Shown here: piece after piece, positions 17,973 to 64,000 of the stretch | Layout of the letters: each line of letters begins with the position of its first letter | How positions within the stretch are numbered: the first letter of the stretch is position 1 | Assembly (NCBI GenBank): GCA_017626395.1 | Contig: JAGAIU010000069.1 | Span: 34,015 to 98,014, forward strand | Length of the DNA stretch: 64,000 nt | Reading direction: 5' to 3' | Source of the DNA: Clostridia bacterium | GTDB taxonomy: Bacteria > Bacillota > Clostridia > TANB77 > CAG-465 | The notes under the pieces: model-generated | Seen by the model: only the letters and a program-made list of their open reading frames with translations | The model's database searches: none | Told to the model about the DNA's origin: nothing | Made by a program: the position numbers and the translations under genes

Positions 17973-18012
17973 AAAATATGCAACCTTTTTACTAAAAAAT
18001 ACTGTCTTAATA
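17973..18012 (+). promoter_or_regulatory. ECF-sigma-type promoter, copy 2 (likely autoregulatory)
   Basis: TGCAAC at 17979-17984 and GTC at 18004-18006, same spacing as copy 1. About 95 nt upstream of the sigma factor gene. Confidence 0.55.
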
Positions 18013-18105
18013 ATAGGGGGATATTAAGTATATAAGTCTTTTATTATACTTCCCATCTGTGATATAATGTATAAAACTTTTGTTTTTGAAAGGAAATAAA
18101 AAATT

Positions 18106-19426: not shown

Positions 19427-19522
19427 TTTGTGTAATAATGAGCTTTATCTAGAAAGCGAGGTGTGATTTTAAATTAGATAAAAGTTTTTCATATATAAGT
19501 ATAAAAAGGAGTGAATATATTT

Positions 19523-20116: not shown

Positions 20117-20128
20117 GGAGGAATAGTT

Positions 20129-20902
20129 ATGAAAAAATATATTTTAGGCATAGGAATTGTTATTATTATTATTATTATATTTGCATTAATTATATCAATA
20201 AATAGAGAAAAATTTAATACTAATTCAGATAAAGTAGAAGTTATGTCCCAGACGAAGAATAAGGTATATTATATATATACATATATTGATGAAGAAATAA
20301 AAAATAATAGTAGTATACAAATGATAAGCACAGAATTAGAAAATGAATATACACCAAAATTTATGTTGAACAATGCAGAAGCTATTGCTTTGGTAACAAT
20401 CATTGACTTAGATGGTGCGAGTATGGAATATGGTCCTTTTGGAATGACTTATGGAAAAGCGTTAGTAAATAATGTTATAAAAGGAAATATTAATTCAGGA
20501 GATGTAATAGAATATATAAAACCAGGTGGAACTATTTCGGTTTCACAATATGACAAATATGATGCTCCTGCTTCAGTTCAAAAAAGAGACTATCTAGCTA
20601 AAAAGGCCGGAATTGTAATCGATAAAGAGCATACTTATATAAATTTTAAATTTGAAAATGATATTGAGCTTGAGGCTGGAAAAACTTATTTAGTGTATTT
20701 GAATTATGTTAGAAATTATGATAAATATGAGATTATTGGATTAGGCAATGGAATAAGAGAAATAAATGTACCTAGAGCAACTAAAACGGTTACAACAACT
20801 AGTTTTAATATAGATGAATTACAAGTGAAAAATAACAAAACTGGAGAATGGGAATCATTAAATACATATGTTCAAAAAAATATTACAAAGTTAGATGAAT
20901 GA
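20129..20902 (+). CDS. membrane-anchored hypothetical protein
   Basis: 257 aa, N-terminal TM GIGIVIIIIIIFALIISI, RBS AGGAGG. Confidence 0.55.
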   Translation: MKKYILGIGIVIIIIIIFALIISINREKFNTNSDKVEVMSQTKNKVYYIYTYIDEEIKNNSSIQMISTELENEYTPKFMLNNAEAIALVTIIDLDGASMEYGPFGMTYGKALVNNVIKGNINSGDVIEYIKPGGTISVSQYDKYDAPASVQKRDYLAKKAGIVIDKEHTYINFKFENDIELEAGKTYLVYLNYVRNYDKYEIIGLGNGIREINVPRATKTVTTTSFNIDELQVKNNKTGEWESLNTYVQKNITKLDE

Positions 20903-20971
20903 CTGTAGAGAAAGATAAATTAAAATTATTTAATGGAATATTTGGATTAAAAAAATATGTTTTAAAATTAT

Positions 20972-21056
20972 AAGATGTATTCTAGTATATGCAACATCTA
21001 TAGTTATTAAAAAAGGTTTATCAATTCTTGGAATTGATTGTCCAGAAAAAATGTAA
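20972..21056 (+). pseudogene. orphan 3' fragment of argS (direct repeat copy 2)
   Basis: Encodes RCILVYATSIVIKKGLSILGIDCPEKM*, against RCVLVYATSIVIKKGLSLLGIDCPEKM* at the real argS end. Two synonymous and two conservative changes. Confidence 0.8.
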
Positions 21057-21064
21057 TTAATTGT

Positions 21065-21105
21065 ATAGCACTAAATGTTGATATTTTTTCAATATTTGGT
21101 GCTAT
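21065..21105 (+). terminator. hairpin after the orphan argS end
   Basis: 17-bp stem ATAGCACTAAATGTTGA / TCAATATTTGGTGCTAT with two G-U pairs. Confidence 0.5.
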
Positions 21106-21157: not shown

Positions 21158-21332
21158 GACACGTTTTAGACCCTATTTTTATTTTGGATATAAACAAACG
21201 TTTGTTATAATATACATCGTAAAAGAAAGGAGGCAAAAACAAAATGGGATAGCAAATAAGAAGATGTTACATGTAGTAACAAATAAAATCAAAGTAAAAA
21301 ATGTTAAATGAAAGGGAGGAAACGAATGAAGT

Positions 21333-22462
21333 TAGAAGAGTACAAATCAGGCAAAGCTATAAAGATGAATGATTATAAAGCATTTATACCAAGCAAAATA
21401 AATTATAATTGGGGCTGGGATGATACTAAACTAGATAAGTTGTTATCAGAAGCTAATAGACAAATTGGTGAATTAAATGCTTATTCATTATTAATACCAA
21501 ATGTAGATTTATACATTAAAATGCACGTAAAAATTGAAGCTAATAAATCTAGTAAAATTGAAGGAACAAAAACAACAATAGAAGAAGATTTATTAGATGT
21601 AGAAGATATTGCTCCAGAAAAGAAAGATGATTGGGAAGAAGTACAAAATTATGTGAAAGCAACAAATTATGGAATAGAAAGAATAAAAGAAGGCTTTCCA
21701 GTATGCACAAGATTAATTAGAGAAATTCATGGAGTATTAATGAATGGAGTTAGAGGAGAACATAAAACTCCTGGAGAGTTTAGAACGTCACAAAATTGGA
21801 TTGGTGGCAGTATGCCAAGTACAGCTGTGTATGTCCCACCACCACATACTGAAATAGCGGAATGCTTATCTGATTTTGAGAAGTTTATGAATAATGAGGA
21901 GATAGATACTCCAGATTTAATTAAAATTGCAATTTTACATTATCAATTTGAATCTGTACATCCTTTTTTAGATGGAAATGGTAGAATAGGAAGACTATTA
22001 ATACCATTGTATATACAAAGTAAAGGTATGCTTGAAAAACCTTGTCTATATATTTCAGATTATATTGAAAGAAATAAAGAAGTATATTACGATAAACTTA
22101 CGAAAGTAAGAACTCATAATGATCTTATTGGCTGGATTAAATTTTTCTTGGAAGTAATAATTGAAACATCAAAAGCTGCAAAGGAAAAATTTAGAAGAGT
22201 TGTTGAACTAACTATAGAAATGGATAAGATTATAATGGATTTACCTGTAAAACCAGAAAATGCAAAGAAAGTAATAGATTTACTATATAATGAACCGATT
22301 GTATCAAGAAAGAAAATAATTGAAAACACAGGAATAAAGTTTACAACTTTAGTAGGAGTAATAAGAGCTTTTCAAGAAAAGGGAATTTTGATAGAAACAA
22401 CAGGATATAGTAGGAACCAAGTTTTTTCATTTCAAATATATATAGATTTATTTTTAAAATAG
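21333..22462 (+). CDS. Fic family protein (AMPylase-type) with N-terminal inhibitory motif and C-terminal wHTH-like region
   Basis: Active-site HPFLDGNGRIGR. Upstream SSKIEG fits (S/T)xxxE(G/N). ATG 21333 has RBS AGGGAGGA. Confidence 0.85.
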
Positions 22463-22466
22463 AGTT

Positions 22467-22855
22467 TATATTACGAAAAAATCCAAAAATTCGTAATATA
22501 AAAATCCATATTACGAAAAAAGCCGAAAATTCGTAATATAAAAATTTATATTACGAAAAAAGCCGAAAATTCGTGATATAAAAATCTATATCACGAAAAA
22601 AGCCGAAAATTCGTGATATAAAAATCTATATCACGAAAAATCAAGAAAATCTGTGATATAAAAAATTATATCACGAAAAAAGTGATATAAAAAAATATAA
22701 GGCGAAAAATACTAAAATTTCGTCCTACAGAAAAGTATAGGCCGAAAAATATTAAAAATCCGTCCTACAGAAAAGTATAGGTCAAAAAAAGTTAAAAATT
22801 TGCCCTATAAAAAATTATCGGTCAAAAAAGAGCAAAATTTTAACTTATAAAACTA
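22467..22855. repeat. tandem array of ten dyad-symmetric units (nine of 40 bp, one of 29 bp)
   Basis: Units start at 22467, 22507, 22547, 22587, 22627, 22667, 22696, 22736, 22776 and 22816. The prototype is TATATTACGAA-aaaagccgaaaa-TTCGTAATATA-aaaat. Units degenerate progressively rightwards. Confidence 0.9.
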
Positions 22856-22910: not shown

Positions 22911-23444
22911 TTAATAATCTTTTCCTTTATATTCCATATCTAAGATTTCTACCATTTCTTCTGGGCTTTCTTTACAATCATTACTTAACCATTTCTTTAT
23001 TATAGCATTAAGACCAGCTTTAAAAAATTCTATATGATAATCTATATGTTTGTTGTTATAATATTTTTCTGCTAGTTCTGTGTGAAATTGATTAGTAGGT
23101 GGATTAGCATCAAATTTTAATTTAAAATATGTTCTATAAAATATTTGATTTTCTTTTATATGTTTAAACATTTTTAAATAGCTAGTTGGATTTTGTCCAG
23201 CTTCTGCATCATTTATATACATATCTGCAAATTCTTTTTGCATTCTAAGATTTACTTTATCTACTAAATCATATATATCTATATAGTTAGCATAGAAAGT
23301 AGAACGGTTTAAATTAGTACGTTTACAGATGTCTGAAACAGTTATTTGTTCGACTTCTTTAGTTTGTATAAGTTGTATAAATGCTTTTTCTATTTTCTCT
23401 TGTGATTCTCTTTTTCTTTTATTATTTGGTGTATTCATAAACAT
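22911..23444 (-). CDS. TetR/AcrR family transcriptional regulator
   Basis: 177 aa. N-terminal HTH is ITVSDICKRTNLNRSTFYANY. Confidence 0.85.
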   Translation of the reverse strand: MFMNTPNNKRKRESQEKIEKAFIQLIQTKEVEQITVSDICKRTNLNRSTFYANYIDIYDLVDKVNLRMQKEFADMYINDAEAGQNPTSYLKMFKHIKENQIFYRTYFKLKFDANPPTNQFHTELAEKYYNNKHIDYHIEFFKAGLNAIIKKWLSNDCKESPEEMVEILDMEYKGKDY

Positions 23445-23559: not shown

Positions 23560-23778
23560 ATGGGAAAATTAAAAGATGTAAACAAAAAAATCGAAGAGAC
23601 AGTAGTAGGTGGATACAAAAAGATTGAAGAAACAGTTGTAGATGGATATAAAAAAGTTGAAGATACTGTAGTTTCAGGATACAAAAAGGTAGAAGATAAA
23701 TTTGTTGACAAATTCTTAAAAAAAGATGGCGAAACTGTAGAAGAAGCTAAAGAAAGAATTAAAAAAGAACAAGAATAA
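23560..23778 (+). CDS. miniprotein with tandem 11-residue repeats
   Basis: 72 aa: KKIEETVVGGY / KKIEETVVDGY / KKVEDTVVSGY / KKVEDKFVDKF, then ...ETVEEAKERIKKEQE. RBS AAAGGAG. Paralog at 25778-26017. Confidence 0.65.
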   Translation: MGKLKDVNKKIEETVVGGYKKIEETVVDGYKKVEDTVVSGYKKVEDKFVDKFLKKDGETVEEAKERIKKEQE

Positions 23779-24431
23779 TGAAAAATATAGTTAAAGAGTT
23801 TATAAATTTAGAAAAAAGAGACAAAGTTGTATTTTTTCTAATCTGTTCAACAATAGGTAATTTTTTCATTGCAATAATAAAATTCTTAATATCATTTACA
23901 TTGCCTTCATTGTGGTTCTTTGTAAACGCTGGATTTAGTTTAAGTTTAGCAATATGTAGATATTTAACAATAAAGAGATATAGGATAATTAAAAAGCTTA
24001 AGAATAAAGAGTTAGTTATGAAGCATGAGGTAAAGAATTACTTACAAAATGGAGTTATGCTAATATTTGTAGGGATAATGTATTTCTTTGTGAGTTCATA
24101 TATGTATTATAAAGGAACTAATACTAATATGCATGAGTTTATTACATATTTAGTTGCACTTATGGCTTTTTCTTCAATAGGGAATGCTATATATGGAATG
24201 ATAAAGTATAAAAGAAACGAAGAACCTATTATTAAAGGGATAAAAGTAACTAACTTTGCTAGTGCATTAACTTCAATAGTATTAACACAGGTAGTATTGC
24301 TAGATACTTTTCATACTGGATATGATTCAACAATAAATGGTTATACTGGAATGGGTGCTAGTATAATAATTATAATTTTAGGTCTTTATATGATTATTAG
24401 TGCTAAAAAAGATGAGGAAATTAAGTCATAA
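23778..24431 (+). CDS. integral membrane protein, unknown function
   Basis: 217 aa, five to six TM segments. Start overlaps the upstream stop (TAATG). Confidence 0.6.
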   Translation: MKNIVKEFINLEKRDKVVFFLICSTIGNFFIAIIKFLISFTLPSLWFFVNAGFSLSLAICRYLTIKRYRIIKKLKNKELVMKHEVKNYLQNGVMLIFVGIMYFFVSSYMYYKGTNTNMHEFITYLVALMAFSSIGNAIYGMIKYKRNEEPIIKGIKVTNFASALTSIVLTQVVLLDTFHTGYDSTINGYTGMGASIIIIILGLYMIISAKKDEEIKS

Positions 24432-25777: not shown

Positions 25778-26017
25778 ATGAGTAAAATAAGAAATGCAAA
25801 TAAAAAGATAGAAGAAAAAGTTGTTGGCGGATATAAAAAAGTAGAAAATACAGTTGTTTCTAGTTACAAAAAAATTGAAGATGAATTTGTAGATATGTTT
25901 TTAAGAAATGATAATGAAACTATAGAAGAGGCTAAAGAAAGAATAAAAAAAGAACAAGAAGAATTAAAAAAGAAAAATGAAGAACTTGTTAGAAAAAGCC
26001 AAGAAAGATATAAATAG
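25778..26017 (+). CDS. miniprotein with 11-residue repeats (paralog of 23560-23778)
   Basis: 79 aa: KKIEEKVVGGY / KKVENTVVSSY / KKIEDEFVDMF, then the identical EEAKERIKKEQE block. RBS AAAGGAG. Confidence 0.65.
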   Translation: MSKIRNANKKIEEKVVGGYKKVENTVVSSYKKIEDEFVDMFLRNDNETIEEAKERIKKEQEELKKKNEELVRKSQERYK

Positions 26018-53880: not shown

Positions 53881-55764
53881 ATGAGAAGTTTAAGAGATTT
53901 TAAAGTGCCAGACTTTAAATTTCCAAAATTTAAATTACTTAATTTCGAAAAAATTGAAGACTTCATAGATGAAGTTAAAAAGAAAGGAAAAACAAAAGAA
54001 TACAAACAAGGTGATCCTATACCAGAGCCACTAAGATATAATACAATGCAAGAAGTATTTAATGTAGTTACAGAAAAATACAAAGACAATGTATTAGTTA
54101 CAGAAAAATTTAATCATAAAGGACAATATGAAGAAATTACATATGGACAATTTAGGGAAGATGTAATTGGCCTTGGAACAGGTCTTATTGAATATTTAGG
54201 ATTAAAAGATAAAAGAGTAGTTATTATTAGTGAAACTACATATAACTGGTATGTATCATACATGGCAATGTTATGTGGTGTTGGTATTGCTGTACCAATG
54301 GATAAAGAATTACCTGCAAACGAACTTGAAAATTTAGTTAAAAGATCTAAAGCTTCAGCTATTATTTTCTCATCAAGAAAAAAAGAGCTAGTTGAAAAAG
54401 TTAGACCTAATTTACCAGATGTTGAATACTTTATTGAAATGTATTCAGATGCAGATTTAAATGGTAAAGATGTAGGGTTCAATACAGTTAAAAATATAGG
54501 TAAAAAATTACATGAGAATGGAAATAATTCATTACTTGATACTAAAATAGATAAAGAAGAGTTTAAAGTATTAATATTTACATCTGGAACAACATCTGCA
54601 TCTAAAGGTGTTATGCTATGTAATAGAAACTTAACTGAAAATTTATATGCAGTAGGATGCTATGTTAATATTTCTGAAAAGGATAGATTATTCTCAGTAT
54701 TACCATTACATCATACATATGAATCAACAATAGGCTTTTTATATCCATTTTCAATTGGTGCATCTGTTGCTGTATGTGAAGGATTAAAATATATAGTTCC
54801 AAACTTAAAAGAAACTAAGCCTACAGCATTACTTGCAGTACCACTACTTGTTGAAAGTTTATACAAAAAGATAAACTTAAATATTAAAAAATCTGGTAAA
54901 GAACCATTAGTAAATACAATGATACATGTTACTAATGCATTAAAAATGGTTGGCATAGATGTAAAAAGAAAAGTATTTGCTGAGATATTAGAAAATTTAG
55001 GTGGAAACTTAAAATATGTTGTATCTGCTGCTGCTCCTATTGACGGAAAAGTTGGTAAATGGGTTGAAGATATAGGTATGGAATTCTATCAAGGATATGG
55101 ACTTACTGAAACTGCACCAATTGCAGCTCTTACTCCACAATCAGATAGAAGAGTAGGCTCTGTTGGTAAAGCTGTAGCTTGTGGTGAAATAAAAATAGAT
55201 ACTCCAAATGAAGATGGTGAAGGTGAAATATTAATTAAGAGTACAACTTTAATGCTTGGATACTATGAAAATGAAGAAGCAACAAATGAAGTTATTAAAG
55301 ATGGTTGGTTCCATAGTGGAGATATAGGATATATGGATAAAGATGGATTCTTATACATTACAGGTAGAAGTAAAAACGTTATAGTAACTGCTAACGGTAA
55401 AAATATATATCCAGAAGAAATAGAATTATTACTAAGTAAAGTTCCACTAATTTCTGAATGCATGGTATATGGTAAAGGTGAAAATGAAGACTTAACAATT
55501 GCTGTTAAAGTTATACCAAATTATGAATATATTAAAGAAAATGTAAAAGCTGATGCTACAGAAGAAGATATATACAATATGATTTGGGATGAAATAAAAA
55601 CAATAAATCATTCTTTAACTTCATATAAAGCAATTAAATTACTTGAAATTAAAAAAGATGAATTTGAAAAAACTACAACAATGAAAATTAAAAGATTTGC
55701 TGAATTAAAGAAGGATAAAGAAAAAGAAGAAGCTGAAAAAGCTAAAAAAGAAGAGAAGAAATAA
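53881..55764 (+). CDS. long-chain-fatty-acid--CoA ligase (AMP-binding enzyme family)
   Basis: 627 aa. AMP-binding motifs FTSGTTSASKGV, YGLTET, GWFHSGDIG. Lys/Glu-rich tail. Confidence 0.85.
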   Translation: MRSLRDFKVPDFKFPKFKLLNFEKIEDFIDEVKKKGKTKEYKQGDPIPEPLRYNTMQEVFNVVTEKYKDNVLVTEKFNHKGQYEEITYGQFREDVIGLGTGLIEYLGLKDKRVVIISETTYNWYVSYMAMLCGVGIAVPMDKELPANELENLVKRSKASAIIFSSRKKELVEKVRPNLPDVEYFIEMYSDADLNGKDVGFNTVKNIGKKLHENGNNSLLDTKIDKEEFKVLIFTSGTTSASKGVMLCNRNLTENLYAVGCYVNISEKDRLFSVLPLHHTYESTIGFLYPFSIGASVAVCEGLKYIVPNLKETKPTALLAVPLLVESLYKKINLNIKKSGKEPLVNTMIHVTNALKMVGIDVKRKVFAEILENLGGNLKYVVSAAAPIDGKVGKWVEDIGMEFYQGYGLTETAPIAALTPQSDRRVGSVGKAVACGEIKIDTPNEDGEGEILIKSTTLMLGYYENEEATNEVIKDGWFHSGDIGYMDKDGFLYITGRSKNVIVTANGKNIYPEEIELLLSKVPLISECMVYGKGENEDLTIAVKVIPNYEYIKENVKADATEEDIYNMIWDEIKTINHSLTSYKAIKLLEIKKDEFEKTTTMKIKRFAELKKDKEKEEAEKAKKEEKK

Positions 55765-55787
55765 TATATGAAATTAAGGTGAATTAA

Positions 55788-56240
55788 ATGAAAAAAATAT
55801 ATATAATTTTCTTTATTATATTTAGTATGTGTTTAATATCATTTATTTTTATCAATAAAAACATAAAAATAAAAAAAGAAGAACTGCTTAAAAGCGAGAC
55901 AGAACAATTTGAAGTTATAAAAAAAATAATAAGTGATAGATTTAAAAATTTTAATGAGTATAATATTATATTAGATAAATCTATGTATTATAATTTTGTA
56001 ACAGGTATTGAATATTCAAATGTCATAAAAGAAAAACTTGATAATTTGGAAAAAAAATATGTAGGAAGTCACTTAACATATATTATATCTATAAAATATA
56101 ATAATTTAAATAATTGTTTAACTATCACAAACGAAATAAAAGAATTAAATGAAAAACATGTACAAAAATATTATTTAAATGTTGAAAATGATATTATAAA
56201 ATATACTAAAAATAATTTTTCATATAGTGAATACACTTAG
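55788..56240 (+). CDS. membrane-anchored hypothetical protein
   Basis: 150 aa, N-terminal TM, RBS AAGGTG. Starts 23 nt after the ligase stop. Confidence 0.5.
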   Translation: MKKIYIIFFIIFSMCLISFIFINKNIKIKKEELLKSETEQFEVIKKIISDRFKNFNEYNIILDKSMYYNFVTGIEYSNVIKEKLDNLEKKYVGSHLTYIISIKYNNLNNCLTITNEIKELNEKHVQKYYLNVENDIIKYTKNNFSYSEYT

Positions 56241-56295
56241 AAAAGAACGTAAATTTAAAAGCAAACTGGTCAATAAAAAGTAGACATTTTTTAAT

Positions 56296-56340
56296 AAAGT
56301 CCCTACTTGAGTATAAAACTCAATTTGGGACTTTATATTT
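56296..56340. terminator. compound hairpin terminator
   Basis: AAAGTCCC-tac-TTGAGT-ataaa-ACTCAA-ttt-GGGACTTT. Confidence 0.6.
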
Positions 56341-56588
56341 TAAAGCATAACTTAGTCTATATTCATTATTATCTTTTACGATATTTTTTTATAAATTTTT
56401 CAACTGTGTTATAATTACTTATATTAAAATTAATATACATTTCCTTCTTAAGCCATCCATTTTTAGACTCTTTTACTGGATTTTCTGTTGGTGCTCCAAC
56501 TATGGACATAAATCTTATTATATATGATATATACCCATAGATTAATGACAATATCAACAAATTTATTCAACTCATGTCGATAAAAGAA

Positions 56589-56619
56589 GAAAAGTGTACT
56601 AAATGTACACTTTTCTTTA
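56589..56619. terminator. hairpin, member of a family of three related terminators
   Basis: GAAAAGTGTAC / GTACACTTTTC. Related hairpins are at 58328-58356 and 60086-60116. Confidence 0.6.
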
Positions 56620-56707
56620 TTGTTACATTATAACATATAATATACGTTTGTCAATAATCTAAAAGTGTCGAATTTTATTATAAAATACAACACTTTTAGA
56701 TAGATAT

Positions 56708-57280
56708 TTAATATAATTCTTGTAGCGTATTTAAATCTGTATAATGAATTGCTGTAGCACCAGTGTAATATCTAAACATAACAGAAGTTCTATATGCAGA
56801 GTCTCTTAATCCTAAAACATGACCTAATTCGTGCATAAGAACAGATTTTAGATAATAGGTTCCTGATGTTGTAGAACCATTATTATATGTGTAATTTGAG
56901 TTAATATATACTTTCGCATCTATTGCCACCTTGTTTCCTTCTTCATCTACATTAGCAACTCTAATTGTCTTACCAACGGTATCGATAGAAGATTTTGAAA
57001 CACTCACCACTCCCACTGGTTTGAATTCTGCATCATATACGGTTCCTTTATATACAAATAATGTACCAAGTCCTACTGAATTCCATTCATTAATAGCTTC
57101 TTGTAATTGTGAAATTTCCCAACTTGAAAATTTAGAAGAAACAACGATACTAATTGGAATACTGTAATATCCATATGGGTCTTCATCTTCTATACTAGTA
57201 GCATTAACGTTTGTTGCAAAAATAAAACTAAATAAGATTATTATAATTAAAAATAATGATATTTTTGTCTTCATAGACAT
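56708..57280 (-). CDS. small secreted metzincin-like zinc metalloprotease (HExxHxxGxxD variant)
   Basis: Signal peptide MSMKTKISLFLIIIILFSFIFATNVNA. HELGHVLGLRD with Asp in place of the third His. Met-turn-like SVMF. Confidence 0.7.
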   Translation of the reverse strand: MSMKTKISLFLIIIILFSFIFATNVNATSIEDEDPYGYYSIPISIVVSSKFSSWEISQLQEAINEWNSVGLGTLFVYKGTVYDAEFKPVGVVSVSKSSIDTVGKTIRVANVDEEGNKVAIDAKVYINSNYTYNNGSTTSGTYYLKSVLMHELGHVLGLRDSAYRTSVMFRYYTGATAIHYTDLNTLQELY

Positions 57281-57410
57281 TTCCTCCTTTAAATTATTAA
57301 ATTTGTAAAATATCCAAAGTGCTTTTTTAAAATTGCTTTAGATGTAAAAAATATTCACTCCTTTCTAAATATTATTAAATATTTATTTGAAAAAACTTTG
57401 ATGTGGAAAA

Positions 57411-57440
57411 ATTATAACATAATCCTATAAAAAATGTCAA
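57411..57440 (-). promoter_or_regulatory. sigma-A promoter of the metzincin gene
   Basis: On the minus strand: TTGACA (57435-57440), 18 nt, TATAAT (57411-57416), preceded by TG. Confidence 0.55.
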
Positions 57441-57611
57441 CTTTTTACGTTGAAAACGCTGCAATTTCAATGTTTTTTTGAAATAATCTCAATATATTAA
57501 TAAATATACAGGATGAGAAATTTACGTATATTTTAAAATAGAAATAATTAGAAATTTTTTTAGATTAAATTTTAAATACTTTAATAAATAAAGTTAATTA
57601 TTAAAAAATGA

Positions 57612-58314
57612 CAAGGATATGTACTTACTGAAACTGCACCAATTGCAGCTTTAACTCCAGAAGCAGATAGAAGAGTAGGTTCTGTTGGTAAAGCGGTATC
57701 TTGTGCTGAAATTAAGATAGATAATCCAAATGAAGATGGTGAAGGCGAAATATTAATTAAGAGTACAACTTTAATGCTTGGATACTATGAAAATGAAGAA
57801 GCAACAAATGATGTTATTAAAGATGGCTGGTTCCATAGTGGAGATATAGGATATATGGATAAAGATGGATTCATATATATTACAGGTATAAGCAAAAACG
57901 TAATAGTTACAGCTAATGGTAAAAATATATATCCAGAAGAAATAGAATTATTACTAAGTAAAGTTCCACTAATATCTGAATGTATGGTATATGGTAAAGG
58001 TGAAAATGAAGATTTAACAATTGCTGTTAAAGTTATACCAAACTATGAATATATTAAAGAAAATGTTAAAGCTGATGCTACAGAAGAAGATATATATAAT
58101 ATGATTTGGGAAGAAATAAAAACTATAAATCATTCTTTAACTTCATACAAAGCAATCAAATTACTAGAAATTAAAAAAGATGAATTTGAAAAAAACTACA
58201 ACAATGAAAATAAAAAGATTTGCTGAATTAAAGAAGGATAAAGAAAAAGAAGAAGCTGAGAAAGCTAAAAAAGAAGAGAAAAAAGAAAAAGTTAAAAAAG
58301 AAGATAAGAAATAA
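57612..58314 (+). pseudogene. truncated, frameshifted copy of the 3' third of the acyl-CoA ligase gene
   Basis: Collinear with 55090-55764 with scattered substitutions. It has no 5' part. One extra A in the run 58189-58195 (7 A against 6 A at 55667-55672) breaks the frame. Confidence 0.85.
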
Positions 58315-58327
58315 GATTAACAAATAA

Positions 58328-58356
58328 AAAAAAGTGTACATAAAGTACACTTTTTG
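58328..58356. terminator. hairpin terminator (family member)
   Basis: AAAAGTGTAC / GTACACTTTT plus T-run. Confidence 0.65.
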
Positions 58357-58443
58357 TCGTTTAAAGTAGTTTAAAATATATAAATTTATTGATAATACTA
58401 TCAAATTGTGATAATATAGGACTCATATAAAAGGAGAATAATT

Positions 58444-59292
58444 ATGGATAGTGTAATTAATAAAAAGAATATTATTGCAACTGTTGTACTTCTTATAGTA
58501 GCTTTAGTTTCAATATTTGGAATATCAAAAATAGCAAGTTCAGTAGAATTTCATAAAAAAACAATAAAAAGTTTAGATGATAAAAAAATAATTGTTATGG
58601 AATTAACAGCGGCGACTGTAGGATCAGCTACTGCTATTGCAGCAATACCTGGAGATGCAACATTGCCATTGGCAAATCAAATAATGGATTTAAGTGGATA
58701 CTTAATTATTGTAATAGGTGTTATTTTCTTTGAAAAGATATTGTTGACACTTACAGGATATATAACTTTTACTTTTTTAATACCAATTGCATGTCTATTG
58801 TATGGTATATATATTTATGTACGTAAAGATTCTTTAAGAAATTTATCGTTGAAATTAGCGATGTTTGGAATAATTATATTTATGATTGTTCCTATTAGTG
58901 TAAAAATAAGTAATTTAATTGAAGAATCATATAAAGCAACAATAAATCAAACTATTGAAGAAGCAAATGAATTACAAAATGATGTAGAAGACCAAGAAGC
59001 AACGAGTGAAGAAGAAAATGGACTATGGAATAAAATTACATCTGCTGTGTCGAATGTGGTTTCATCAATTGGAAACGCGTTTTCTGAATTAATTGAAAAG
59101 GGAAAACAATTATTAAGTAATTTTATTGATGCGATTGCAGTATTGTTAATAACAACTTGTGTTATACCTATAGCAGTATTGTTTTTTATTGTTTGGATTG
59201 TAAAAATTATATTTGATATTACAATACCAGTAAAAAAAGTTAAATTAAATATGCCTAAATTTTTAAATAAAGCTAAAGATGTTGAAGAATAG
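58444..59292 (+). CDS. integral membrane protein, unknown function
   Basis: 282 aa, about six TM segments, acidic loop, RBS AAGGAG. Confidence 0.55.
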   Translation: MDSVINKKNIIATVVLLIVALVSIFGISKIASSVEFHKKTIKSLDDKKIIVMELTAATVGSATAIAAIPGDATLPLANQIMDLSGYLIIVIGVIFFEKILLTLTGYITFTFLIPIACLLYGIYIYVRKDSLRNLSLKLAMFGIIIFMIVPISVKISNLIEESYKATINQTIEEANELQNDVEDQEATSEEENGLWNKITSAVSNVVSSIGNAFSELIEKGKQLLSNFIDAIAVLLITTCVIPIAVLFFIVWIVKIIFDITIPVKKVKLNMPKFLNKAKDVEE

Positions 59293-59364
59293 AAAAAATA
59301 AATAATTGGTTGTTTGTGAAAAAATATGACCATTATATAAGATTTTTAGAAAGAAGGAAAGAAA

Positions 59365-59982
59365 ATGAAAGTCAAAGTAACGATGGATTTATCTACAAAA
59401 GTTGCAAAAGATTGGTTGGCCGGAAAGGTAGACATTTCTAATGCTGTTGTTAGAAGTAGGGATACTGGTAAGATTCTTAAATATGTAAAATTAGGAACAG
59501 AAAATACAATTGATAATGCAAAAAAAGTAGCAAGTAAAGTTACTGGAAAAAATTTGGTAATTGGATTAGGAGTTACTGCTGCTGTTGTGACTATTGGCGG
59601 AATTATTAATTTAGTAATAAATAAAAAAAATGACAAAGAAAGTGTAGGAATACCAAAATGCATAAATGATTTTCAAAAATATTTTCACAAATATTTAAAA
59701 GAGACTCAAAAAGGTGTTATTAATATCAAATCTATTGATTCTTTAATGTCATCATTAGATAAAGTAGAAGAAGTGAAGAGGGAAGAAATTGGAATTGATT
59801 TTTCGACAGATGAAATAAGAAACATATTGGAAAGGATATATGATTTTACTATTAAGATTAATGAAGAATATAGTGGTGAAAAAATAAAAATGAAATTACC
59901 ATCTAAAAATAGTTCAAAAAATATTATATGTTTAAAAGATTATTTAGAAAATCAAAAACAAGTTATAGAAAAAATATCATAA
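59365..59982 (+). CDS. hypothetical protein with one central TM segment
   Basis: 205 aa, RBS GAAGGAAAG, TM LVIGLGVTAAVVTIGGIINLVI. Confidence 0.5.
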   Translation: MKVKVTMDLSTKVAKDWLAGKVDISNAVVRSRDTGKILKYVKLGTENTIDNAKKVASKVTGKNLVIGLGVTAAVVTIGGIINLVINKKNDKESVGIPKCINDFQKYFHKYLKETQKGVINIKSIDSLMSSLDKVEEVKREEIGIDFSTDEIRNILERIYDFTIKINEEYSGEKIKMKLPSKNSSKNIICLKDYLENQKQVIEKIS

Positions 59983-60085
59983 CATTAAAATAATGGATGC
60001 TAACTCGATAGTTAAGGTATAAGTTCTAAAAATGTTTAGAATAAGTAAAGAAGATAAGAAGAAGGATAAGAAATAATGTAAAATA

Positions 60086-60116
60086 AAAGTGCACTTTATA
60101 GTGCACTTTCTTTTTT
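60086..60116. terminator. hairpin terminator (family member)
   Basis: AAAGTGCAC / GTGCACTTT plus T-run. Confidence 0.65.
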
Positions 60117-60123
60117 ATCTAAC

Positions 60124-60152
60124 ATAAAAAAGAACTAGTTTAAACTAGTTCT
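60124..60152 (-). terminator. terminator of tRNA-fMet
   Basis: AGAACTAGTT / AACTAGTTCT stem, followed by a T-run on the minus strand. Confidence 0.65.
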
Positions 60153-60157
60153 ATAGA

Positions 60158-60233
60158 TGGTTGCGGGAGCAAGACTCGAACTTGCGACCTTCGGGTTATG
60201 AGCCCAACGAGCTGCCAACTGCTCCATCCCGCG
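60158..60233 (-). tRNA. initiator tRNA-fMet (anticodon CAT)
   Basis: Reverse complement is CGCGGGATGGAGCAGTTGGCAGCTCGTTGGGCTCATAACCCGAAGGTCGCAAGTTCGAGTCTTGCTCCCGCAACCA. It has a C1-A72 mismatch and three G-C pairs closing the anticodon stem. CCA is encoded. Confidence 0.9.
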
Positions 60234-60386
60234 ATGCTTATTGTTCTTTTATTATAATACAAGAAATTACAAAAGTCAACCCTTTTTAGAAATATTTTAT
60301 GCAAATCATTTGAAAAATATTCTTGAAATATTGAAATTATTGACTTTTTTCATTATCTTGATATAATTAAGGTGGGAGGAATGAAG

Positions 60387-60971
60387 ATGAGATTAGTACT
60401 TGCCTCAAAGTCCATTACAAGAAGAAGTATAATGGATAGTTTGAAGATAAAATATGATGTTGTAACAAGCGATGCAGAAGAAAATTATAAAAGTGAAGAT
60501 CCAAGAAAATATGTTGAAGAATTATCTTTAATTAAAGCAAAAGCTGTTGCAGAAAAAATAGATAGAGAAGATGTAGTAATAATAGCTGCTGATTCTATTA
60601 TATATAAAGATGGTAAAAAATATGAAAAGCCACATAGTATAGAGGAAGTTATTGCTAATTTAAAAGAATTAAGTAATTCTGTAAATCAAGGGATTACAGG
60701 AGTAACAATAGTAGATAAACTTGGCGGAAAAACTTTAACTTTTTCTTGTATTACAGATGTTAAATTTAAAGTTATTGATGAGGAAGATATAAAATGGTAT
60801 ATAGAACATGAAGATCATTTACTAGATAAAGCTGGATATTCTTTAGAGGGAACTATGTCGTTATTTGTGGATAAAATAGATGGAGATTATTACAATGTTT
60901 TAGGATTACCACTTGGTAAAATATATACAAGTATAAAAGAGTTAGGATATGAACTTAAAGATTTTAATTAA
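60387..60971 (+). CDS. maf: Maf-like nucleoside triphosphate pyrophosphatase
   Basis: LVLASKSITRR N-terminus, AADSII and YNVLGLP motifs. ATG 60387 is best spaced from RBS GGTGGGAGG. Confidence 0.8.
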   Translation: MRLVLASKSITRRSIMDSLKIKYDVVTSDAEENYKSEDPRKYVEELSLIKAKAVAEKIDREDVVIIAADSIIYKDGKKYEKPHSIEEVIANLKELSNSVNQGITGVTIVDKLGGKTLTFSCITDVKFKVIDEEDIKWYIEHEDHLLDKAGYSLEGTMSLFVDKIDGDYYNVLGLPLGKIYTSIKELGYELKDFN

Positions 60972-60987: not shown

Positions 60988-61932
60988 ATGTCTATGACTG
61001 TAAAGTCTAAAAACAAATATTTATGCGAAGATAAAAATAAACTAAAAGAGCTTATGAAAGAAGAAGGGTTCATCTTTAAAAATAGTGCTTTAAAAAGAGA
61101 TGAATATTTTGTAGATACAAATAAAAAACTTATATCAAAAGATGCTTGCATAAGAGTAAGGTGTGAAAATGATAAGAAAATAGTATTATCTTTTAACGGA
61201 GATACTGAAAATATAAGTGCACTTAATATAAAATCTCAAGACAAAGTATTTCTAGATATAGCTGAATATGGTAATATTGTATCATTTTTAGCGGATTTAG
61301 GATATTATAAATATGTTAGTATAAATGTTTTAAAAGAGACATATGTGAAAAAAGAAAAAGAATATTACTATAGTATTAATATAGATACAATAGAAAACAT
61401 TGGTGAGTTTATAGATTATGATATTTATACCGAAGAAGATAATGAAGAAAAGACAAATGAAGTCTTTAAGAAATTCGAAGAAACTATGAGTTCATGTTTA
61501 GGAGAGAAGATAGAAGAAAAATATAGAGACTATTCTTCAAGAATAACTTTTGAAACAAAATTAAAAGGTAACTATGTTAAAAAGATATTAGTTGAACTAG
61601 AAAAAATATTTGTAAATTTTAAACAAGATGATGTAGAGAAGTCTATAAAAAATAAATATACAATTTTAAATTTAGAACTTATAGAAAAACTTGAGCAATT
61701 AGGAATAGAAGTAAGCATTGTATATTCTAATCCCAATAGCGAGCTTGTAGAAAATATAAAACTAGCTTTATCTAAAATTGGTTATGGTCCTAAATTTATG
61801 AATATAAAAGAAATAAAAGAAATTGCAGTAAGAGAAACTTTGATTATCGAAAATCAAAAGAAAATAGATTTTAGTGAAGTTGGACTGATAATTTCAAATT
61901 ATTATAAAGTAGAATCGCCTAATAATAAATAA
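60988..61932 (+). CDS. CYTH-domain (CyaB/class IV adenylyl cyclase-like triphosphate tunnel) protein with an extra C-terminal domain
   Basis: 314 aa. The N-terminal ~170 aa (DEYF...CIRVR...GEFIDYDIY) are CYTH-like. The C-terminal ~140 aa are unassigned. Confidence 0.5.
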   Translation: MSMTVKSKNKYLCEDKNKLKELMKEEGFIFKNSALKRDEYFVDTNKKLISKDACIRVRCENDKKIVLSFNGDTENISALNIKSQDKVFLDIAEYGNIVSFLADLGYYKYVSINVLKETYVKKEKEYYYSINIDTIENIGEFIDYDIYTEEDNEEKTNEVFKKFEETMSSCLGEKIEEKYRDYSSRITFETKLKGNYVKKILVELEKIFVNFKQDDVEKSIKNKYTILNLELIEKLEQLGIEVSIVYSNPNSELVENIKLALSKIGYGPKFMNIKEIKEIAVRETLIIENQKKIDFSEVGLIISNYYKVESPNNK

Positions 61933-61989: not shown

Positions 61990-62168
61990 ATGTTTAGCAA
62001 AAAAGATAGAAAACCACTAATAAAAAGAAAGTTTAAAATCAATGAAAAAAAAGACAAAAAATATTAAAAAAAACGGATATAATTGCTTCAAAAATGCTTG
62101 AATTAAGATTTTTATTATGCTATTATATAAGAGTAAACAATGTGTTTATAAGGGGGGAATTTTAAATT

Positions 62169-64000
62169 ATGAAAAAAACTTTCAGAATAAAAACTTTGGT
62201 ACTTTGTATGTTAGCTATGATGGTTCTAACATTTGTACCAAACGTGCAAGCCGCTGGATATGTTAACACTGTTGAAGATGAAAACGATGCAGCGATTGTA
62301 TGTAGCATGATGGCAGATAAAACTGATGTTAAACCAGGAGATGTTATAACAGTAACATTAACATTAGATAAAGTACCAGCTAGTGGTCTTTCTGCTATAG
62401 ATGCTAGAATAATATTCGATTCTTCAAAAGTTAAATTACAAACTTATGAAGATGAGTATGGCGATGAATATCTTTCTGTTATACCAGAAGGTGTTTTTGC
62501 TAATACAAAAAGATGGACTCACGATTTAGGAACAGTAGCAGATGATGAAATTGCTAACGGTGTAAGTGTTCCATCTGCATTAGTTGCAAAAGATATTGAA
62601 TATGCAACTAGCCAAACAGGAACTGTTTGCACATATAAATTTGAAGTATTAAACACTGCAGAAGGCGGACCAATAACAATGTATGTTAAATCTGCAGAAG
62701 ATAATGGTTTCTATGTAACAGGTGTTAAAGAAGTTGGTGGAGTATTAGATACTGACGATACAGTAACACGTTACTTAAAAACAAACTTAACAGATATAAA
62801 AATATCTGTACCTGCTACAGGAGTAAAATTCGATGGAATAACAGGAGCTACTCTTGATACAGCAGAAAACAAAAAAATGAGTGTTGCTAAATATGTTGTT
62901 ATAGATCCAACAAATACAACTGATACAATGTCTTGGAGTTCAGAAAACGAAAATGTTGCAACAGTTGATAGCAATGGGGTAATAACAGCAGTTGGAAAAG
63001 GAACAACTAACGTTGTTGTTAAAGTTGGAAATTATACAGCTAAATTACCTGTAACTGTAACAATTCCACTAGAAGGTGTTGAATTCAAAAACTTAGATAA
63101 AGTAGAACTAGATGTTACTACTAATAAAGTAATAGACATTTCTGGTAATGTTAACTTATTACCAGCTGGAGCAGAAGCTGCAGGATATGAATGGTCTTCA
63201 AGTGATGAAACAGTTGTTACCGTAAAAGATGGTTTAGTAACAGCAGTTGGAAAAGGAACAGCTGAAATAACTGTTAAAGTTGGAAAATTTGAAGCTACAG
63301 TTCCTGTAACAGTAACAGCTTCAGTAGGAAGTGTAAGTTTTGATCTTCCAAAATTAGTTTTAGATACTGAAACTAAAACAGAAGCTAACTTAAAAGATTC
63401 AATAGTTACAGACCCAGTAAATGCAGATGTTAAATCTATAACTTGGGAATCTTCAGATGAAGATGTTGTAACAGTAGATGCTGAAGGTAAAGTAAAAGTT
63501 GTTGGAAAAGGAACAGCTGAAATTACAGTAACAGTAGATGGAAAAACAGCTACTATACCAGTTAGTGTAACAGTTCCAATCAAAGGAATAACTGTTGATG
63601 TAGAAACTGTTGAAGTATTTAAAGGAGATGTTGCTAAAGTAGTTGTAACTGCTACTCCAGAAGGTGCAGAATGGACAACTTTAGATGCATCATTTAGATC
63701 AGGAAGCGAATATGCAACAGCTAAATCTGTAGAAGATGGTGTAGAAATTGAAGGTCTTGCTGAAGGTGAAGCTCTAGTTGTTATCGCAGCAGACAAAGCT
63801 ACAACAGGTGAACTTGTAAAACTTGTAAAAGTAGTAGTTAAAGAAAACAAAGTTACTGATTTCCAAATTGATGGAAATGACGAAGCAATTCTAAGAGGAG
63901 AAGTTAAAGAATTAGGTGTTGTATATGGAACTGAAATACCAGAAACAGAACATGAAACAACTGATGATACAACAGTAACTTGGGAATCTTTAAATGAAGA
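62169..64000 (+). CDS. secreted surface protein: cohesin-like N-terminal domain plus tandem Big_2 (bacterial Ig-like) domains. Partial, runs off the right edge.
   Basis: RBS AAGGGGGG, signal peptide ...TFVPNVQA/AG. GDVITVTLTLDKVP...IDARIIFDSSKV is cohesin-like. There are at least five repeats with the VTAVGKGTAEITV hallmark. I saw no stop before base 64000. Absent from the track because the ORF is unterminated. Confidence 0.75.
   Translation, partial: MKKTFRIKTLVLCMLAMMVLTFVPNVQAAGYVNTVEDENDAAIVCSMMADKTDVKPGDVITVTLTLDKVPASGLSAIDARIIFDSSKVKLQTYEDEYGDEYLSVIPEGVFANTKRWTHDLGTVADDEIANGVSVPSALVAKDIEYATSQTGTVCTYKFEVLNTAEGGPITMYVKSAEDNGFYVTGVKEVGGVLDTDDTVTRYLKTNLTDIKISVPATGVKFDGITGATLDTAENKKMSVAKYVVIDPTNTTDTMSWSSENENVATVDSNGVITAVGKGTTNVVVKVGNYTAKLPVTVTIPLEGVEFKNLDKVELDVTTNKVIDISGNVNLLPAGAEAAGYEWSSSDETVVTVKDGLVTAVGKGTAEITVKVGKFEATVPVTVTASVGSVSFDLPKLVLDTETKTEANLKDSIVTDPVNADVKSITWESSDEDVVTVDAEGKVKVVGKGTAEITVTVDGKTATIPVSVTVPIKGITVDVETVEVFKGDVAKVVVTATPEGAEWTTLDASFRSGSEYATAKSVEDGVEIEGLAEGEALVVIAADKATTGELVKLVKVVVKENKVTDFQIDGNDEAILRGEVKELGVVYGTEIPETEHETTDDTTVTWESLNE

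Follow-up and report, generated by a model that had tools for sequence, protein, structure and literature searches.

Loci of Rhs, CdiA and T6SS effectors are known to carry arrays in which gene 3' ends have been sequentially displaced ("C-terminal" displacement; Kirchberger 2017, PMC5361080, and Jackson 2009 as cited there). Foreign DNA can also be gained through homology-facilitated illegitimate recombination, as well as by insertion-duplication, in which DNA that has circularised after conjugation undergoes a single crossover (PMC3240628; de Vries & Wackernagel 2002 and Prudhomme et al. 2002, as cited in PMC5361080). In addition, integrative mobilizable elements and cis-mobilizable elements (CIMEs), their decayed derivatives, accrete in tandem at the 3' ends of tRNA and protein genes (Guedon et al. 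2017, PMC5704250). Here, we describe the interval from an acyl-CoA ligase gene to the initiator tRNA-fMet gene in an uncultured gut Clostridia bacterium (positions 55090-60233 in a 64-kb stretch of DNA; the whole stretch is hereafter called the window), which consists of stacked recombination scars at a hot spot for genomic islands and holds no working mobile element. DNA of related strains appears to have entered between ligase and tRNA on two or more occasions, always accompanied by its own copy of the ligase gene end; older ends and decayed pieces of mobile elements have thereby become stacked downstream. The scar is clear but fairly ordinary, the result of a kind of event already known, and its interest is modest.

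The ligase gene (53881-55764, plus strand; 627 aa, AMP-binding plus AMP-binding_C_3) is intact; the nearest alleles share 95% identity with it, and most of them encode 640 aa. Its 3' third was described in an earlier note on this DNA as being repeated downstream with mostly third-position substitutions and a frame-breaking A, and alignment bears this out along with a further trace of the gene end discussed below. The final 675 nt of the gene (copy 1, 55090-55764, plus strand) and copy 2 (57612-58314, plus strand) are collinear direct repeats that differ by 38 substitutions over 675 nt (5.6%, about 94% identity), 28 of them at codon position 3. Copy 2 is a stranded ligase 3' end with a sharp left edge at 57612 and is now a pseudogene, frameshifted by one extra A in the run 58189-58195 and altered in conserved motifs (GYG to GYV, GRS to GIS). 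The 27-nt unit coding for the Lys/Glu tail is present twice in copy 2 and once in copy 1.

The earlier note had suggested placing the pseudogene copy among the ligase alleles of relatives. Relative to L164, we count 27 derived changes in copy 2 and about 9 in copy 1. Only 8 of the 27 fall at codon positions 1 or 2 (p = 9e-5 versus the neutral expectation), and 11, which are clustered, match the allele of L167. This third-position bias, together with the polymorphisms shared with L167, points to different alleles rather than to a local duplication that has drifted. Judged by their substitutions, copies 1 and 2 represent separate alleles whose divergence took place under purifying selection, and at least one gene end was thus acquired from another strain. 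Ligase nt 900-1209 resemble copy 1 in allele affinity, a weak signal (p = 0.03) with a gradient along the gene, which would fit a donor tract beginning upstream of the repeat.

A third trace, previously marked as tentative at about 60046-60076, is real. It comprises the final 30 nt of a ligase allele of the long-tail kind (copy 3, 60047-60076), and the alignment at 92-93% identity with empty-site relatives continues from the native gene end through terminator, spacer and tRNA 3' end (60047-60168). Copy 3, its terminator hairpin (60086-60109) and the spacer together occupy 60047-60157 (plus strand), with the tRNA's own terminator inside the spacer at 60131-60152; on the left, the non-homologous joint 60046/60047 is sharp. 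The gene immediately beyond islet B is, as claimed, that of the initiator tRNA: a tRNA-Met(CAT) at 60158-60233 (minus strand), in which a C1xA72 mismatch and a GGG/CCC anticodon stem can be read. Its 3' end (60157-60168, ATGGTTGCGGGA) is identical to the attachment core of an intact element in the relative L163/L194.

Related hairpins had been reported at three sites, and the motif AAGTG(Y)AC...GT(R)CACTT is indeed confined to these three in the 64 kb, with 0 expected by chance. All three fold stably (z-scores -4.3 to -5.6). The terminators of copies 1 and 2 are of the GTGTAC type and have about 35 nt of flank in common, and that of copy 3 is of the GTGCAC type, as in the empty-site clade. The copy 2 unit (T', 58318-58394, plus strand; hairpin 58328-58356) extends into the -35 box (TTGATA, 58389) of the B1 promoter. 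The unit T1 (56552-56631, minus strand) consists of a hairpin at 56587-56617 (-16.2 kcal/mol, z -5.6) and some 35 nt of flanking sequence. Reverse-complemented, the unit aligns collinearly with 58318-58394 (39/46 identical, then 14/15 further on), and its orientation is fixed because the flanks are asymmetric. The picture of three nested gene ends, each with its own terminator, therefore holds with one correction, namely that the hairpin at 56587-56617 belongs to copy 1. Most probably it is this copy's own post-stop terminator, flipped by an inversion of about 860 bp (55766-56627) between the short inverted repeats ATAAT (55761-55765) and ATTAT (56628-56632). Undoing the inversion would restore the gene end GAAATAATGTAAC...hairpin as in copies 2 and 3, extend the homology of copies 1 and 2 to about 80 nt beyond the stop codon, and place orfA1 downstream of the metzincin gene on the same strand, as in L163. 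That the intact ligase gene has no terminator, as the earlier note remarked, would then be a secondary effect of this inversion and not a property of the insertion.

In islet A, orfA1 (55788-56240, plus strand; 150 aa, N-terminal anchor) lies 23 nt behind the ligase stop codon. It finds no family match in profile searches and is 31-32% identical to a 153-aa ORF beside the metzincin gene of the L163 element (E 2e-15; E 3.5e-6). The "ORF remnant" of the earlier note (56369-56560, minus strand) is a remnant, to which we add a putative identity as the C-terminal end of an IS3-family transposase: its roughly 48 residues match NCBIfam transpos_IS3 (positions 301-348 of 369, E 5.9e-5), Pfam rve_3 (E 0.008) and a PHROG transposase (E 0.008), all three below curated cut-offs. 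A full IS3 copy is present in none of the fetched loci. The following gene (56708-57280, minus strand; 190 aa) encodes a predicted metzincin, a small secreted matrixin-like metalloprotease (Pfam Peptidase_M10, E 3e-11), to which its counterpart in the L163 element is 32.5% identical (E 7e-19). The promoter and leader of the gene, followed by 165 nt without a match, take up 57281-57611 (minus strand), with a predicted promoter TTGACA-18-TATAAT at 57440-57411; 57201-57446 shares 76-78% DNA identity with L163 14517-14772. The unmatched stretch ends at a sharp, illegitimate joint (57611/57612). OrfA1, the metzincin gene and its promoter match the L163 element in content and, once the inversion is undone, also in order and strand, and by this resemblance we recognize islet A as a fragment of the left end of a mobilizable tRNA-inserting element.

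Islet B contains two genes on the plus strand. B1 (58444-59292) encodes a predicted all-helical membrane protein of 282 aa, the structure model of which (pLDDT 69) has no match in the PDB. Among its 438 homologues, one is located inside an element with tyrosine integrase and Mob_Pre relaxase adjoining tRNA-Gly; by homology, B1 is assigned to a gene family that such integrase plus Mob_Pre elements also carry. B2 (59365-59982; 205 aa, hydrophobic segment mid-protein) has no family match in profile searches, and an identical protein occurs in a strain in which the divergence of Maf and CYTH grows with distance from the tRNA. Against L189, 59222-60240 shows 0/1019 differences, followed beyond the tRNA by 3 mismatches in 43 nt and then by 6-26% per 200 nt. 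In the strain that is 100% identical over islet B and the third trace, the neighbouring Maf/CYTH divergence is about 2% by the tRNA and 6-26% farther away.

Comparison of relatives reveals several states of the site. Empty sites (ligase, terminator, tRNA, Maf) are observed in L164, L165, L168 and L169, with 95% identical ligase genes. In the ancestral arrangement, the ligase gene is followed by its terminator, about 50 nt and tRNA-fMet. L163 plus L194 contain an intact mobilizable element of 10.3 kb with Mob_Pre relaxase and tyrosine integrase, which sits in the tRNA 3' end and is bounded by the 12-nt repeat ATGGTTGCGGGA of that end. In this species, the 3' end of the tRNA gene serves as insertion site for mobilizable integrative elements with tyrosine integrase and Mob_Pre relaxase. 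L166 carries 2.7 kb without an integrase between repeats of about 65 nt of spacer plus tRNA end, with an additional 320-nt insert beside it, and variable inserts at the tRNA are also seen in a species whose ligase is 75% identical. Of the states for which the earlier note had proposed to compare relatives, the empty one is found, and the only single-islet candidate is L188, a 3.9-kb scaffold with Ns that may be an assembly chimera, since its variants switch from copy 1 to copy 2 inside a 56-nt identical stretch.

We consider it fairly probable that the locus arose through imports anchored by homology in the ligase gene and joined illegitimately on the other side, followed by decay. The donors would be related strains already carrying such material beside their own ligase gene, with entry on at least two occasions. 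Incoming DNA would recombine homologously within the ligase gene, and its other side would join illegitimately, either inside the resident ligase gene or 30 nt before its end. This could occur by homology-facilitated illegitimate recombination, with a linear fragment recombining homologously on one side only, or, equally possibly, by a single crossover of a circularised fragment carrying a ligase 3' piece. By either route the gene would be completed by the incoming end with its terminator, which would leave the resident end stranded downstream instead of replacing it. Later, an IS3 element would have inserted and been cut short, a step that probably cost the element fragment its relaxase side, after which the inversion would have parted copy 1 from its terminator and brought orfA1 to its place right behind the ligase. 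Once complete, the composite could spread among strains by ordinary homologous recombination, with the ligase and tRNA genes as flanks. No genome was found that shows the arrangement predicted for a donor (copy-1 allele, T1, B1 promoter and so on). Of the previous proposal of two successive insertions, each with a replacement gene end, the nested ends are supported, as is the origin of the long copies from different alleles; nothing points to an element that targets the ligase 3' end.

Such an element would have inserted twice through an integrase specific for the ligase 3' end, bringing replacement ends within its attachment site, and would then have decayed, through loss of integrase and transfer genes, to CIMEs that retain just the attachment sites. 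Nested repeats of a target 3' end around recombinase-free islets are the described signature of tandem accretion (PMC5704250), the islet genes also occur on integrase plus Mob_Pre elements, and in L166 the tRNA site next to the ligase holds inserts of this kind, with repeated flanks and no recombinase. Site-specific accretion is nevertheless improbable here: the intact element at the locus uses the 12-nt core in the tRNA-fMet 3' end and not the ligase gene, none of the relatives examined has an element within the ligase 3' end, and the islet A repeat, at about 750 nt with an arbitrary start inside the gene, is far longer than the identity segments of attachment sites. Furthermore, the 64 kb contain neither a homologue of an integrase or relaxase nor a further copy of the tRNA core, and no recombinase is linked to the islets.

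A local tandem duplication, in which an illegitimate exchange between sister chromosomes duplicated everything from ligase nt 1210 into an element then located at the tRNA, would require just one novel joint (57611/57612) and would explain why the duplicated unit is alike in the two copies, down to some 80 nt past the stop codon. The distal element copy would subsequently have been excised, precisely at the tRNA, as is plausible given the intact L163/L194 element, and the duplicates would have diverged in place. The roughly threefold excess of derived changes in copy 2 suits this course. The third-position bias of copy 2 and its 11 L167-like changes are unexpected in a pseudogene drifting in place, and the 12-15% divergence at third positions and terminator would predict, for a neutral copy, approximately 30 changes at positions 1 and 2, whereas 8-10 are seen. 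To rescue the duplication, one copy would have to have been overwritten by another allele, an extra replacement, and we regard it as unlikely. An assembly artefact, with reads of co-existing strains mis-joined into nested copies, is very improbable, even though the window comes from metagenome assemblies, the short contigs L190, L191 and L193 break exactly at the repeats, and contig L188 is a hybrid of copies 1 and 2. The whole arrangement is recovered in the same order at 99.9% identity in independent metagenome assemblies (6 contigs of 30-238 kb, the 2 read here being from different samples), the copies differ by 5.6% and have unique flanks each, and the inactivating changes of copy 2 are those expected of a real stranded fragment. 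The earlier observation is thus real as regards copies, trace, hairpins and tRNA, and required correction in the ownership of one hairpin, the identity of the ORF remnant and the extent of the homology between the long copies.

The same signature had been claimed for argS, where we likewise find a 94-nt repeat at 94% identity around a 5.7-kb islet. The suggested recurrent acquisition mechanism draws on 2 loci among about 59 long ORFs scanned on both strands of the window, equivalent to fewer real genes.

With CIME accretion, the locus shares an island hot spot beside a tRNA gene, an intact element with tyrosine integrase and MobV-type relaxase at the same site in a relative, recombinase-free islets between repeated copies of a target sequence, and decay and rearrangement tied to an insertion sequence. 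Unlike in CIMEs, the bracketing repeats are ligase ends of 30 to about 750 nt and not the 12-nt tRNA core, of which there is no second copy, so the islets lack the attachment sites by which a CIME is defined. In prime-plasmid formation and specialised transduction, an aberrantly excised element captures flanking chromosomal DNA. Here, too, an element fragment beside the ligase is now joined to an internal point of the ligase gene, and aberrant excision taking the ligase 3' end would look alike; the capture step is conjectural, and in contrast to those systems neither a circular form nor a function for replication or packaging can be detected at the ligase locus. Homology-facilitated illegitimate recombination likewise leaves one junction in homology and the other as a sharp non-homologous joint, and gains foreign DNA without an element-encoded recombinase, and in insertion-duplication a single crossover of a circle bearing a gene fragment duplicates exactly that fragment. 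Whereas these are rare laboratory events in competent or conjugating model bacteria, the history of the ligase locus is read from its end product. Compared with Rhs, CdiA and T6SS effector arrays, the gene is a housekeeping acyl-CoA ligase, its displaced ends encode near-identical protein with neither a variable toxin domain nor an immunity gene, and the payload is unrelated cargo from mobilizable elements, so that selection cannot act on the gene end itself. As in those arrays, the incoming module would comprise a new gene 3' end plus downstream genes, recombination would proceed via the conserved upstream part, the old 3' end would be pushed downstream as an orphan, and repeated events would give nested arrays; for both, homology-facilitated illegitimate recombination is proposed, with finished arrays spreading by homologous recombination.

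The AMP-binding ligase gene (53881-55764, 627 aa) lies in a window with a G+C content of ~27%, and its last 675 nt (55090-55764, hereafter copy 1) recur downstream at 57612-58314 (copy 2). The two copies share ~94% DNA identity with few residue differences, 28 of the 38 substitutions between them falling at third codon positions. In copy 2 the frame is broken by an additional A at 58189-58195, and the tail has one 27-nt unit more than in copy 1. An earlier note, made from the sequence alone, had tentatively listed a third, very short trace of the gene end (copy 3; 60047-60076, with a hairpin at 60086-60109). This trace is a real gene end rather than a low-complexity coincidence: in close relatives, the native gene end together with its terminator, the spacer, and the 3' end of the tRNA can be aligned with window 60047-60168 at 92-93% identity. 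The hairpin motif AAGTG(Y)AC...GT(R)CACTT is found within the 64 kb only at 56592, 58332, and 60087, where chance would give none, and folding indicates that all three hairpins are stable. The gene ends are stacked, copies 2 and 3 lying downstream of the intact one: islet A comes after copy 1 and islet B after copy 2, and copy 3 has only a tRNA-fMet gene (60158-60233, minus strand) behind it. The sequence of this tRNA identifies it as an initiator, with a C1xA72 mismatch and a GGG/CCC anticodon stem. Rfam matches were restricted to two tRNAs. The complete arrangement is present at 99.9% identity in six contigs, and the two examined come from different samples.

Scanning species-level genome and metagenome contigs for the ligase returned relatives of only 60-69% identity, with no gene neighbourhood in common, and full paralogues only; partial ligase copies were absent from these scans. 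A search of a protein collection recovered ligase alleles at 95% identity, mostly of 640 aa, with five locus states on their contigs. The empty sites that the earlier note had proposed to look for are present in four contigs (L164, L165, L168, and L169), where the order is ligase, terminator, tRNA-fMet, Maf, and CYTH. On contig L163, homology to the window ends 11 nt inside the tRNA 3' end and gives way to a 10.3-kb element carrying a Mob_Pre relaxase, a 153-aa ORF, a metzincin, regulators, and a 406-aa tyrosine integrase; its far end, on contig L194, abuts an intact tRNA, and the sole direct repeat bounding the element is the 12-nt ATGGTTGCGGGA. A general model in which copy 3 is an element-borne arm beside the tRNA was dropped, as the intact element has just this 12-nt core and its own hairpin. 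Contig L166 (11959-15090) harbors two inserts, one of 320 nt following the ligase terminator and one of 2.7 kb with a single 718-aa ORF and no integrase. On either side of the larger insert lies a ~65-nt repeat that comprises the ligase-terminator arm, the spacer, and the 3' end of the tRNA, and the smaller is flanked by a short terminator-arm repeat (AAGTGCACTTT / AAGTGACTTTT), so that the repeats are nested; this locus is a second case of recombinase-free stacking. On contig L167, the ligase allele encodes 627 aa and has a terminator of its own, after which come one 201-aa ORF and then the tRNA. A species with a 75%-identical ligase has three additional genes after the ligase and variable inserts beside the tRNA. 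These five states mark the ligase-tRNA interval as a hot spot, in which the known integrase target is the tRNA and not the ligase gene.

Islet A shows similarity to the element of L163. Its first ORF, orfA1, is 31-32% identical to the 153-aa ORF, and its metzincin is 32.5% identical to that of the element, with 76-78% DNA identity across the metzincin promoter and leader (window 57201-57446, L163 14517-14772). The conserved region comprises the promoter, a 130-nt leader, and the signal-peptide coding sequence, the proteases themselves being only ~32% identical; an Rfam search of the leader gave no match. Comparison of the relatives' inserts with the window by tblastx otherwise produced AT-rich noise, and just the orfA1 and metzincin matches, confirmed by tblastn, were kept. 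The ORF at 56369-56560 matches the last ~48 residues of IS3-family transposases in three libraries, each time under the curated cut-off (in NCBIfam, E 5.9e-5 and 22.5 bits versus a cut-off of 160), and neither element ends nor a complete copy of this remnant was found in the fetched loci. The junction sequences 57447-57611 and 59983-60046 likewise have no relatives in these loci.

Islet B holds two genes, B1 and B2. Hundreds of B1 homologues exist, with 57-70% identity among those listed; one lies inside a tyrosine integrase and Mob_Pre element adjoining tRNA-Gly, and another sits among defence and accessory genes. The element at L170 1-8900 encodes a tyrosine integrase, a Mob_Pre relaxase, a B1 homologue, a Bsp6I-type restriction-modification pair, and an AAA_15/21 ATPase; it adjoins two tandem tRNA-Gly genes, and a third tRNA-Gly, just 67% identical, is located ~1.4 kb from the integrase. 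B1 itself gave a single weak plasmid match, its structure model had no match in the PDB with E < 0.04, and family libraries returned no match for B1, B2, or orfA1. No recombinase is linked to the islets: tblastn with the L163 and L170 integrases gave no match in the 64-kb window, Pfam searches of the islet ORFs gave no recombinase, and the window contains no Mob_Pre homologue. The tRNA core ATGGTTGCGGGA has a single occurrence in the window, the tRNA itself, and a tRNA attachment site bounding the islets is therefore ruled out.

The earlier description of the intact ligase gene as lacking a terminator is accurate for its present state, the cause of which is probably an inversion of copy 1's own terminator. 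The reverse complement of 56552-56631 is collinear with 58318-58394, the terminator unit 3' of the copy 2 stop codon. The match covers a first stretch, with 39 of 46 positions identical including the asymmetric flanks TAACAA(A)TAAA and CTTxTTTA, and a second, ATAAATTTrTTGATA, with 14 of 15 identical, whereas in the opposite orientation only the palindromic stem matches. Because the collinear reverse complement includes asymmetric flanks, we infer that the hairpin at 56587-56617 is copy 1's terminator in inverted orientation, and the segment 55766-56627 would have turned over between the flanking ATAAT and ATTAT. Turned back, this segment gives a gene end of the form GAAATAATGTAACAATAAAG-hairpin-CTTCTTTTATC, matching the native AAATAATGTAAAATAAAAG-hairpin-CTTTTTTATC of copy 3, and brings orfA1 into the L163 arrangement, downstream of the metzincin and with the same orientation. 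The restored order is ligase, copy 1 terminator, IS3 remnant, orfA1 (minus strand), metzincin (minus strand), promoter, and copy 2. Such an inversion would thus have left the intact ligase gene without a terminator and running into orfA1. With the inversion undone, the duplicated unit runs as far as the B1 promoter's -35 box, ~80 nt after the stop codon, which suggests that in both source lineages B1 already followed the ligase gene.

Relative to the empty-site clade, copy 2 carries ~27 derived changes and copy 1 ~9. Codon positions 1 or 2 account for 8 of the 27 changes in copy 2, whereas in a drifting pseudogene the expected share is two thirds (p = 9e-5), and 11 of the 27, in clusters, reproduce the L167 allele. 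Taken together, this codon-position bias and the matches to L167 argue that copy 2 diverged mainly inside the working gene of another genome; its frameshift and conserved-motif changes (GYG to GYV, GRS to GIS) are recent. The terminator types agree with the copies being different alleles, those of copies 1 and 2 being of the GTGTAC type and that of copy 3 of the GTGCAC type, accompanied by the long KEDKKKDKK tail of the empty-site clade. At sites separating the L164 and L167 alleles, matches (L164:L167) number 47:66 in the ligase 5' part, 21:28 in copy 2, and 31:20 in copy 1. Ligase nt 900-1200, with 15:9, are already like copy 1, and a possible switch in affinity upstream of nt 1210 is weak.

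Parts of the finished composite are also seen in other backgrounds. Over window 59222-60240, contig L189, from another sample, shows 0 differences in 1019 positions, a block spanning the end of B1, B2, copy 3, the terminator, the spacer, and the tRNA. Beyond it there are 3 mismatches in the next 43 nt and 1.7% divergence up to 60650, followed by 6%, 11.5%, 26%, and 10% per 200 nt through Maf and CYTH. An identical block amid diverged flanks points to recent exchange between diverged backgrounds, with an end point at or within the invariant tRNA gene; a homologous crossover in this 76-nt gene would fit, as would recombination at the tRNA core. All that can be read from the block is that the composite travels as a single unit. 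In a 3.9-kb scaffold from another sample (L188), window 54019-55395 is joined to 57918-60438 and islet A is absent, the ligase 5' sequence leading into a copy-1/copy-2 hybrid and then islet B, in which, of the sites that differ between the copies, the first 23 have the copy-1 state and all later ones the copy-2 state. This scaffold may represent a natural deletion of islet A by recombination between the ligase ends, or it may be an assembly chimera formed within a 56-nt identical stretch.

The N-terminal part of the CYTH gene (61051-61250) is hypervariable, the window being ~25% from both L164 and L189, which differ from each other by 10%. Downstream of Maf/CYTH, window 62100-64000 and L081 18289-21884 encode very large (794-aa and 1254-aa) surface proteins with Big_2 and Ig-like repeats, with weak matches to cohesin for the 794-aa protein and to dockerin for the 1254-aa protein; a 255-nt tandem period is found at 62974-63589.

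The best-supported account, which we hold with moderate confidence, is homology-anchored import followed by decay. Donors would be related strains with element-derived DNA beside their own ligase gene. Incoming DNA would recombine inside the ligase gene on one side and join illegitimately on the other, at resident gene nt 1210 in one event and 30 nt before the stop codon in the other, leaving the resident gene ends stranded downstream. The DNA could arrive as a linear fragment by one-sided recombination or as a circularised fragment carrying a ligase piece by a single crossover; both routes are experimentally documented (PMC3240628), and the linear one has been put forward to explain how displaced 3' ends come to be stacked in a similar way at T6SS and Rhs loci (PMC5361080). 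The imports would have been followed by insertion and truncation of the IS3 element and by the inversion. Elements that integrate site-specifically at the ligase gene and accrete there (PMC5704250) are a less likely explanation, given an intact local element whose target is the tRNA, a repeat of ~750 nt, and the lack of any duplicated attachment core. A simple local tandem duplication, against which the earlier note had weighed its reading of successive insertions into the ligase 3' end, is contradicted by the substitution pattern of the copies. The core of that reading holds, and the observation behind it is real.

The parallel previously drawn with argS, concerning two loci in all, is likewise correct. 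When the last 45 nt of all ORFs of at least 150 aa were used to seek copies within 12 kb downstream, argS (42/45) and the ligase gene (39/45) were the only outliers over a background of at most 33/45. At argS (region 13553-21065), a 94-nt repeat with 94% identity (15208-15301 and 20972-21065), including the last 85 coding nt and the stop codon, brackets a 5.7-kb islet encoding a Peptidase_C92 amidase, an ECF-type sigma factor, a second matrixin (Peptidase_M10, 19511-20116), and unknowns, with no recombinase among the islet genes. Each argS copy has a different terminator. It is conceivable, if rather improbable, that in this lineage of small-genome gut Clostridia fragments shed by tRNA-targeting mobilizable elements routinely capture the neighbouring host gene end as a homology arm, entering strains without a recombinase of their own. 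Were this true, such hitch-hiking of gene ends would be a recurrent RecA-dependent route explaining both the ligase and the argS scars, and small secreted metalloprotease cassettes would spread among strains.

Other repeats occur beyond the argS islet. Two adjoining arrays of 40-nt tandem units (22425-22852; ~5.4 and 3.5 copies, 80-89% identity), each unit with an inverted repeat (TATCACGAA...TTCGTGATA), have a Fic-domain gene (21308-22462) on one side and a minus-strand TetR-like gene (22911-23444) on the other. These arrays had no Rfam match and may be operator or iteron-like sites. Two paralogous ~70-aa genes at 23560-23780 and 25806-26000 (~80% DNA identity) have an internal 33-nt period encoding GGYKKIEETVV-type repeats, each just upstream of a membrane-protein gene; the repeat pair 23577-23785 / 25795-25970 was accordingly rejected as a gene-end scar.

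The region is a well-resolved natural example of accessory DNA accumulating at a hot spot without a resident recombinase. DNA arriving from other strains restores the adjacent housekeeping gene and leaves the former gene end stranded. Past events can be read from the resulting stack, which consists of three gene ends, an element fragment, an insertion-sequence remnant, and an inversion. Annotators should treat short ligase or argS "genes" that follow the real ones as scars. The region also supplies markers for strain-level exchange in this uncultured gut lineage, and the displacement signature of toxin loci is here seen at ordinary genes.

An integrative mobilizable element (IME) has its own integrase or recombinase, a relaxase and/or oriT, and direct repeats of an attachment core as bounds, whereas the islets lack a recombinase (tblastn of the window, Pfam of the islet ORFs), the window lacks a Mob_Pre homologue, and ATGGTTGCGGGA is present in it once. 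With cis-mobilizable, decayed integrative elements (CIMEs) the islets share the lack of a recombinase; a CIME keeps attL and attR usable by a related integrase, and the islets are flanked instead by ligase gene ends. An IS3-family insertion sequence consists of a DDE transposase and terminal inverted repeats, of which only the ~48 C-terminal residues were matched here and no ends were found. Stacked orphan 3' fragments with downstream genes are also the hallmark of C-terminal displacement arrays (Rhs, CdiA, T6SS effectors), but these have variable 3' toxin domains and immunity genes, whereas here the ends are ~94% identical, the gene is an AMP-binding ligase, and family library searches gave no toxin or immunity families at the locus. 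Homology-facilitated illegitimate recombination combines one homologous junction with one non-homologous joint; the joints at 57611/57612 and 60046/60047 are sharp, no left joint is detectable inside the ligase gene, and searches of genome contigs, metagenome contigs, and the protein collection found no donor genome. In Campbell-type insertion-duplication, the direct repeats are the homologous fragment carried by a circular molecule, and with the inversion undone the repeats have both limits in common (gene nt 1210 and ~80 nt past the stop codon), which is compatible with this route and not proof of it. No new machinery is involved: the locus is a scar left by recombination at an island hot spot, and other loci already provide examples of this kind.
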